The notes beneath the pieces were generated by a model that was not told the DNA's origin, searched no databases, and saw only the letters and a program-made list of their open reading frames with translations. Positions 20,933 to 21,063 of a DNA stretch of 64,000 nt are shown here, one piece after another. A program made the translations under genes and the position numbers. The stretch is from Escherichia coli (GTDB lineage: Bacteria > Pseudomonadota > Gammaproteobacteria > Enterobacterales > Enterobacteriaceae): NCBI RefSeq assembly GCF_002854065.1, contig NZ_CP024147.1; one strand, 5' to 3'. The first letter of the stretch is position 1. The number at the start of each line of letters is the position of its first letter.

Positions 20933-21063
20933 GGTTGGTTTTCTCCCTCTCCCTGTGGGAGAGGGGACCGATCGAGCACAAATTTTGAGAGATATCTTCT
21001 TCTGTCTTGTAACAGAAGAACAGAAAATCGGGCTTTTGCGCCTGAATATTGCGGAGAAAAAGC

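Follow-up and report, generated by a model that had tools for sequence, protein, structure and literature searches.

Two hairpins of probably different origin and role between hrpB and mrcB of Escherichia coli: a collapsed BoxC repeat and a conserved stem-loop of the mrcB leader

The genes hrpB and mrcB of Escherichia coli are separated by a spacer of 131 bp in the 64,000-nucleotide stretch of contig NZ_CP024147.1 (assembly GCF_002854065.1) that was analyzed in this work and is called the window below; the hrpB stop codon lies at 20930-20932 and the mrcB ATG at 21064-21066. PBP1B, the mrcB product, is a beta-lactam target and one of two major peptidoglycan synthases in E. coli; how LpoB and CpoB control its activity has been studied in detail. 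Of 5,426 complete E. coli genomes, 5,424 are matched by a 241-nt query that spans the site, and the annotated flanking genes are hrpB and mrcB. A preliminary description of the window, made from the sequence alone, placed two adjacent stem-loops in this spacer and suggested that they were not intrinsic terminators and could be a REP-like element, an RNA-processing site or a control element in the mrcB leader. The presence of two hairpins was confirmed by sequence and RNA folding. In our judgment the two probably differ in origin and role, the one next to hrpB (hairpin 1) being a BoxC relic and the one closer to mrcB (hairpin 2) a stem-loop of a conserved mrcB leader.

The whole spacer folds better than all 200 of its shuffled versions on the + strand (z = -3.1) and again on the - strand (z = -3.8). 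As separate RNAs, hairpin 1 has a predicted energy of -18.9 kcal/mol (z = -2.4 against shuffles) and hairpin 2 an energy of -10.1 kcal/mol (z = -3.4). Perfect stems of at least 9 bp with loops of 3-8 nt were found 16 times in the window (approximately ten distinct hairpins, hairpins 1 and 2 among them), compared with an expectation of about two per first-order Markov resample. A terminator scan found no terminator-like site in the spacer on either strand and no U-tract follows hairpin 1 or hairpin 2 (the tails are GACCGAUC and CAGAAAAUC), so the view that neither is an intrinsic terminator is upheld. A consensus scan for sigma-70-like promoters was empty between 20600 and 21200, and an Rfam scan of 20500-21500 at E <= 10 returned only chance-level matches (E = 1.6 and 7.5), both outside the spacer. 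A third small hairpin, overlooked in the preliminary description, is formed by pairing of 21028-21033 with 21040-21045 (-8.9 kcal/mol).

Hairpin 2 is best drawn as TTCTTCTGT / CTTGTA / ACAGAAGAA (20997-21020), i.e. a 9-bp stem with a 6-nt loop. The stem-loop first proposed, in which TTCTTCTG (20997-21004) pairs with CAGAAGAA (21013-21020), stands with two corrections: C20996 is left unpaired, and T21005 does pair with A21012. Eighty mrcB loci were fetched, one genome per species across the Enterobacteriaceae, and 74 spacers were extracted from the hrpB stop codon to the mrcB ATG; the structure counts and conservation columns given below refer to 75 distinct aligned sequences. The 74 spacers vary in length from 75 to 664 bp, and their last ~85 nt are conserved in every locus. 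The distal part of the spacer, on the hrpB side, is unalignable, measures from 0 to ~580 bp and contains BoxC units, REP units, other hairpins or nothing. This ~85-nt leader adjoins mrcB in 82 loci from many genera of the Enterobacteriaceae, and its consensus reads TTGAGAGAT(T/A)TCTTCTT, stem-loop, AAGAA nn GAGAATC (A/G)GGCC.TTGCGCCTGAATGTTGCGGAGA.AAAGC ATG. At TTGAGAGAT, alignment columns 8-15 show no variation, and conservation of column 16 is 90% or higher.

The aligned stem of hairpin 2 comprises ten pairs, and 92% of its cells are paired; sliding the 3' partner by 1-3 columns reduces this to 49-64%. Both sides have changed in six of the ten pairs; doubly changed cells number 89 versus 25 +/- 4 in shuffles, a count that 0 of 500 shuffles reach, with the reservation that the aligned sequences are related and the shuffle-based significance is therefore inflated. 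Pair 27-36, for example, is GC in 36 sequences, AU in 17, GU in eight, UA in five and UG in four. The core of the stem was also predicted independently by RNAalifold, the loop is unconserved, and 65 distinct versions of the stem-loop are present. There are 69 G-U cells on the mrcB-sense strand versus 16 A-C cells (equivalent to G-U on the other strand), a bias that favors an RNA read in the mrcB sense over a palindrome acting as DNA. The sequence of hairpin 3 is conserved, and it is 95-96% paired with one-sided changes only; the data are neutral on its pairing. Conservation of the pairing in orthologous spacers, on which the preliminary description had made its proposals depend, is clearly found for hairpin 2 and is not found for hairpin 1; many strains and genera lack the latter, or have it inverted or another element in its place. 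The structure of hairpin 2 is very probably real and under selection.

A covariance model of the leader (R1) has a sole copy in the window, at 20978-21066, the next best match there having E = 3.3. The model finds the leader in Cronobacter and in six held-out loci of Klebsiella/Raoultella type; in the upstream region of mrcB, most of these six gave no sign of the 3' end of hrpB, and in K. pneumoniae the two genes are separated by others. No leader was found by the model in Mixta, Pantoea, Yersinia, Providencia or one further Enterobacterales locus of 71% identity, and a faint resemblance (UUCUGC...GCAG, AGAGUAAC) was seen by eye in Mixta and Pantoea. Since the leader stays beside mrcB where hrpB is displaced and was found in no outgroup, it travels with mrcB and is restricted to the Enterobacteriaceae.

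The position of hairpin 2 relative to transcription can be read from published maps of the mrcB transcription start site (TSS), which were made in strains other than that of the window. Kim et al. (2012) placed the E. coli mrcB TSS at K-12 position 164235, 495 nt upstream of the gene and inside hrpB, and the K. pneumoniae mrcB TSS 296 nt upstream. The TSS table of Romero et al. (2014) also gives 164235 and no other forward start before 169124. The 51-nt promoter string of Kim et al. (2012) has an exact match at 20583-20633, which makes the 5' untranslated region (UTR) 431 nt long in the window strain. With the starts so far upstream, hairpin 2 lies inside the mapped mrcB 5' UTR. Two Raoultella/Klebsiella loci (L039 and L047) conserve the Klebsiella mrcB promoter of Kim et al., with its -10 TAAAAT and the GCTGGTTA that comes after it; its distance to the ATG is ~300 nt and the upstream context differs, yet the ~85-nt leader is intact.

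The conserved block around hairpin 2 might alternatively be a DNA element, either a sigma-70 promoter or a transcription factor site with half-sites TTCTTC...GAAGAA. Shimada et al. (2014; PMC3946193) proposed a constitutive sigma-70 promoter, TTGAGA-17-TGTAAC, for the hrpB>mrcB spacer from in vitro binding of RNA polymerase (genomic SELEX, systematic evolution of ligands by exponential enrichment), and it covers the same nucleotides as the hairpin 2 region, with the -35 hexamer at 20985-20990 and the -10 hexamer at 21008-21013 (hairpin 2 loop). The RpoH, RpoF and RpoE holoenzymes peak in vitro at K-12 164658, on TTGAGAGAT, and both TTGAGAGAT and the TTCTT/AAGAA segments are essentially invariant, as is the -35 TTGAGA. 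The proposed -10, however, falls in the unconserved hairpin loop and is not kept beyond Escherichia (CCTGAC, GCGGGT and others are found there), the promoter scan was empty in this region, and neither of the published TSS tables, which represent two in vivo data sets, has a start in the spacer. Moreover, a protein-binding palindrome need not keep its variable center complementary or allow G-T on one strand, whereas the center of hairpin 2 covaries with the one-sided G-U excess noted above (69 versus 16). We therefore regard a DNA element as an unlikely explanation of the conserved block.

Of the identities first suggested, a control element in the mrcB leader remains the best reading of hairpin 2, and of hairpin 2 only, given its compensatory changes and its place inside the mapped 5' UTR. 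Situated in a ~85-nt leader fixed directly upstream of the mrcB start throughout the Enterobacteriaceae and transcribed as part of the long 5' UTR, with a stem kept by compensatory substitutions on the mRNA-sense strand, hairpin 2 would act in cis on the mrcB mRNA and set the output of PBP1B. The route could be translation initiation, mRNA stability or the binding of a trans-acting factor. We put the chance that hairpin 2 has a function of this class at about even. It resembles known 5' UTR stem-loops such as the ompA 5' stem-loop in that it is short, located in a 5' UTR near the ribosome-binding site, and conserved in structure more than in apical sequence. It differs from the ompA type in being internal to a long UTR and not at a mapped 5' terminus, and in sitting between the invariant single-stranded segments UUGAGAGAU and GAGAAUC, which are absent from simple stabilizers.

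Several observations weigh against this cis-acting role, in addition to the holoenzyme peaks on TTGAGAGAT. The lower stem of hairpin 2 and its flanks are invariant and so give no covariation signal, which leaves room for a constraint at the DNA level. Replacement of the 3' arm lowered the mean predicted unpaired state of the Shine-Dalgarno (SD) sequence from 0.73 to 0.47, with E. coli itself unchanged. mrcB was not found in the Hfq-CLASH supplementary tables that were searched.

More specific mechanisms and motifs for the leader were also considered. An "anti-anti-SD" function, in which hairpin 2 would prevent the pyrimidine tract UUCUUCUUC from pairing with the purine-rich SD segment GGAGAAAAAG, had little effect in silico and is retained only as a weak possibility. 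Four further candidates were checked by eye on the leader alignment and rejected for lack of conservation: the IHF core WATCARNNNNTTR is matched by AATCAGGCCTTTG in many genera, yet column 53 is variable and the E. coli sequence is ATCGGG; of the CsrA GGA motifs, the second is absent in E. coli; the RNase E motif RN|WUU meets an A at +2 in E. coli; and the extended -10 TGnGAGATT varies at the -7 position. No paper describing the mrcB leader and no report of post-transcriptional control of mrcB was found in a literature search; hairpin 2 is well supported and, as far as that search shows, undescribed.

Hairpin 1 has a different history. It consists of CCCTCTCCC (20945-20953), the loop TGT and GGGAGAGGG (20957-20965) in a perfect 9-bp stem, which a U20944-G20966 wobble can lengthen. 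The K-12 spacer is 195 bp long and contains 64 bp more than that of the window, namely CCGGGGTGAGGGCATCAGCGCGCACGTTCACCCTCACCCTAACCCTCTCCCTCAAGGGAGAGGG, flanked by two direct copies of GGGAGAGGG; the flanks on both sides of the gap are identical in the two strains. The K-12 element is an inverted pair of ~110 bp, and the 64-bp deletion removes the center of the palindrome and leaves its outermost 9-bp stem together with the element flanks. As RNA, the full K-12 element folds into a single long imperfect hairpin of -66 kcal/mol, of which the window retains only the base. Holder et al. (2015; PMC4666352) list in their Table 1 TMECO #1 at K-12 164547-164580 (+) and #2 at 164631-164597 (-), and they regard this triplex motif as identical to the palindromic repeat named BoxC in the 1990s and to the PIT elements of Hoyne/Maher 2000; Kaplan et al. 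(2016; PMC5100583) list the G-quadruplex-hairpin motifs HPGQ #5 and #6 between hrpB and mrcB. Positions 20945-20965 match the first 21 nt of TMECO #1 exactly. The K-12 element is dispersed and intergenic, the number of its places per E. coli genome having a median of 11 and reaching 26 at most; the string GTTTTCT of its left flank also adjoins the copy in the phnE-phnD spacer, and the reverse complement AGAAAAC flanks units in other genera.

Hairpin 1 has the first two blocks of a BoxC unit, a pyrimidine block CCCTC(T/G)CCC and, after a short loop, the complementary purine block GGGAGAGGG, with the flanks of the element, at the site orthologous to TMECO #1/#2. It differs from an intact BoxC/PIT/TMECO/HPGQ element in that the third block (a loop CCG or TTA, then GGGTGAGGG), which makes an intrastrand triplex possible, and the entire partner unit are deleted, GGGAGAGGG running straight into GACCGATC, so that a plain hairpin is left. 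The only G-tracts remaining in the window element are GGG and GGGG at 20957-20966, compared with the four G-tracts by which HPGQ are defined. With the third purine block lost and two G-tracts left, the triplex and G-quadruplex folds are impossible at hairpin 1. Hairpin 1 is thus a collapsed remnant of the BoxC (PIT/TMECO/HPGQ) repeat catalogued at this place in K-12: the DNA is what is left of a repeat that is unstable and not essential, and the RNA is a very stable G+C-rich hairpin. The suggestion of a REP-like element holds for hairpin 1 alone and in the sense of a BoxC-type dispersed repeat, not of REP proper. Elements of the REP/BIME (PU) family are likewise intergenic, dispersed and hairpin-forming and occupy the same kind of site, but they form a different sequence family, and no consensus palindrome of the GCCGGATG...CATCCGGC type is present in the window spacer.

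BoxC-type repeats are intergenic, multi-copy and strain-variable, and this instability is also seen at hrpB-mrcB, in agreement with the published conclusion that TM loci are unusually rearranged. Some E. coli strains have a spacer of 93 bp with no element, and in these hrpB ends in TGA. Among 5,426 complete E. coli genomes, a junction-specific query located the collapsed allele at hrpB-mrcB in 259; the total for this 40-mer is 583 genomes, because an identical 43-bp solo copy sits between phnE and phnD in other strains. The other alleles seen at hrpB-mrcB are no element, a single unit, the full pair and an inverted pair. The phnE-phnD site has both products of collapse, one with loop TGT (crossover in GGGAGAGGG) and the other with loop TCAA (crossover in CCCTCTCCC), which shows that collapse recurs. 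In E. coli E69 the whole BoxC pair (L009 1142-1335) is inverted relative to that of K-12 (L001 354-548), and the opposite orientations at one locus imply either in-place inversion or independent insertion. The pair of Enterobacter type has the orientation of E69 and not that of K-12. Other genera carry from one to many BoxC units at this position, up to 16 blocks in a 509-bp spacer, REP units stand in place of BoxC in the hrpB-mrcB spacers of Citrobacter and Salmonella, and solo hairpins of the hairpin 1 kind are present there in Kluyvera and Pseudocitrobacter.

Related observations were made on the same repeats. At the phnE-phnD site (L003 1501-1543; L092; L093) the strain determines whether a TGT solo hairpin, a TCAA solo hairpin or a REP/BIME-type element is present, so that one family of hairpin repeats takes the place of another while the site stays the same. 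Tandem arrays in the spacers of some genera (L026, L041, L051, L055) consist of two to three units of ~110 nt, each a BoxC unit plus a second A/T-rich hairpin (e.g. GATTTTCTCGTTGAGAAAATC). The spacer of the convergent genes cdaR and yaeH contains a third GGGAGAGGG of the window, as part of a 10-bp hairpin at 39863-39894, CATTCCCCTC-(11 nt)-GAGGGGAATG, which could be a bidirectional terminator or else a BoxC-like relic that has degenerated; the 401-nt cdaR-yaeH region is covered to at least 80% in only 3,566 of 5,424 genomes, and this spacer is polymorphic too. Within the hrpB-mrcB spacer, TTTTCTCC (20939-20946, in the BoxC left flank) is perfectly complementary to GGAGAAAA (21053-21060, in the mrcB SD region), as it is in K-12, and the sense strand of element-inverted strains has the SD-like GGGAGAGGGAGAAAA instead; because the flank belongs to the repeat consensus, the complementarity could be due to chance.

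The proposal of an RNA-processing site found partial support, for hairpin 1 only. Supplementary file 3 of Adams et al. (2021) lists a Term-seq 3' end at K-12 164636 (+), classified as "orphan" with a mean of ~987 reads; this is 94 nt before the mrcB ATG and 5 nt past the GGGAGAGGG arm, and corresponds to window position 20970. The same study lists a 3' end at 3781065, 4 nt past the equivalent arm of TMECO #17, with an intrinsic-terminator score of 1.3 and flagged as a Rho termination region. An RNA 3' end just beyond hairpin 1 would, by analogy, resemble exonuclease stalling at REP hairpins. REP hairpins block 3' exonucleases and stabilize the 3' ends of upstream mRNAs. Hairpin 1 might similarly mark or protect a transcript 3' end just downstream of hrpB, either by blocking 3' exonucleases or by pausing the polymerase after factor-dependent termination, and would otherwise be read through. 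This role is weakened by three points. The read count of the 164636 end is modest, and the end is listed in a single tab, which is not the one for LB OD 0.4, so that it has no Rho score; it was mapped in K-12, a different allele from that of the window; and, in the summary given by Holder et al. (2015), Maher's group saw no promoter or terminator activity of PIT elements.

The same 3' end bears on the possibility that both hairpins serve hrpB, as a terminator/insulator or a 3'-end stabilizer, and that hairpin 2 is conserved for this reason. Besides the K-12 RNA 3' end just past hairpin 1, it is consistent with this explanation that many genera have some hairpin-forming repeat (BoxC, REP or other) between hrpB and the leader. 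The U-tract is missing from both hairpins, however, and Adams et al. (2021) list no Term-seq 3' end past hairpin 2. The distance of hairpin 2 is fixed to the mrcB ATG and variable to the hrpB stop codon, as the range of spacer lengths demonstrates; a distal hairpin is missing altogether from some species, whose spacers measure 75-93 bp; and the leader of Klebsiella/Raoultella stays by mrcB, K. pneumoniae having intervening genes after hrpB. A service to hrpB is accordingly very unlikely to account for hairpin 2.

The spacer could also encode a small protein, with the hairpins incidental to its coding sequence. A 2024 study described D8B36_18480, a "phylogenetically conserved 68-aa protein" between hrpB and mrcB (a PGAP call in an MG1655 annotation), and found that expression of its coding sequence from pUC19 decreased csgA expression 18-fold. 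The only 68-aa open reading frame (ORF) at this place in K-12 is TTG-initiated (L001 356-562, +), covers the whole spacer and takes in the BoxC pair, the leader and the mrcB ATG, ending just beyond the last; it appears to be D8B36_18480 and is taken as such here. Downstream of TTGAGAG, 66 of 75 orthologues keep the frame open. The remaining nine have in-frame stops, however, 64 distinct peptides would result, and there is no 3-nt periodicity, the column variability being 0.57, 0.58 and 0.61 by codon position. The TTG is not preceded by an SD sequence and the N-terminal half would be a translated BoxC repeat. The 64-bp deletion, which is not a multiple of 3, breaks the frame and leaves in the window a 40-aa ORF only (20955-21077, +), and "empty" alleles lack most of the ORF. 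On the lack of codon periodicity, the stops and the broken frame, the coding explanation was rejected as extremely unlikely. Since the 68-aa frame is lost in the window and in empty alleles, one may speculate that the csgA phenotype is an RNA or DNA effect of the spacer.

A more ambitious proposal would join these observations: the ~85-nt leader, with UUGAGAGAU, the covarying hairpin, GAGAAUC, a second hairpin and the SD sequence, might be an undescribed regulatory RNA module that binds a protein or small RNA and couples PBP1B synthesis to an envelope or growth signal, and repression of csgA might result from overexpressed leader/BoxC RNA titrating that factor. We consider this an outside chance. 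The coordinates of all features of the locus are collected in Table 1.

Table 1. Features of the hrpB-mrcB spacer and the mrcB promoter in the window
Feature	Coordinates	Strand	Basis
Promoter region and TSS (last base, 20633) of the long mrcB mRNA, within the hrpB coding sequence	20583..20633	+	51-nt string match, exact
Left flank of the BoxC-type element (GGTTGGTTTTCT); repeat, not unique sequence	20933..20944	+	Same in K-12
Hairpin 1, CCCTCTCCC-TGT-GGGAGAGGG	20945..20965	+	Sequence, K-12 alignment, energy, TMECO #1/#2, HPGQ #5/#6
Right flank of the BoxC element (GACCGATCGAGCAC); contains 20970 = K-12 Term-seq 3' end 164636	20966..20979	+	K-12 alignment
Full conserved mrcB leader motif as modelled	20978..21066	+	Covariance model R1, 101.7 bits, E = 6e-22
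Invariant TTGAGAGAT + ATC, start of the conserved mrcB leader	20985..20996	+	Alignment of 75 sequences
Hairpin 2; stem 20997-21005 with 21012-21020, loop 21006-21011	20997..21020	+	Covariation, energy
GA(G/A)AAT hexamer between hairpins 2 and 3 (GAAAAT in the window)	21023..21028	+	Columns 46-51 nearly invariant
Hairpin 3, TCGGGC-TTTTGC-GCCTGA	21028..21045	+	-8.9 kcal/mol
mrcB SD GGAG 21053-21056, purine-rich spacer, ATG 21064-21066	21053..21066	+	GGAGA invariant

The BoxC part of this locus adds little that is new: it is a clean natural case of deletion of a palindrome center and of site turnover, as already reported for such repeats, and the collapsed allele shows that the capacity for triplex and quadruplex formation is dispensable at hrpB-mrcB. 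The small-protein call is probably a mis-annotation, in that a "conserved small protein" with a curli phenotype appears to match a non-coding spacer. A second, internal start is annotated in K-12 for PBP-1B gamma, 135 nt into mrcB, and corresponds by homology with K-12 164865 to window positions 21199-21201. Translational control mediated by the leader would act on the alpha form and perhaps not on PBP-1B gamma. For the Enterobacteriaceae, the near nucleotide-for-nucleotide conservation of the leader, together with its compensated stem, offers a concrete and cheaply testable handle on post-transcriptional control of mrcB.

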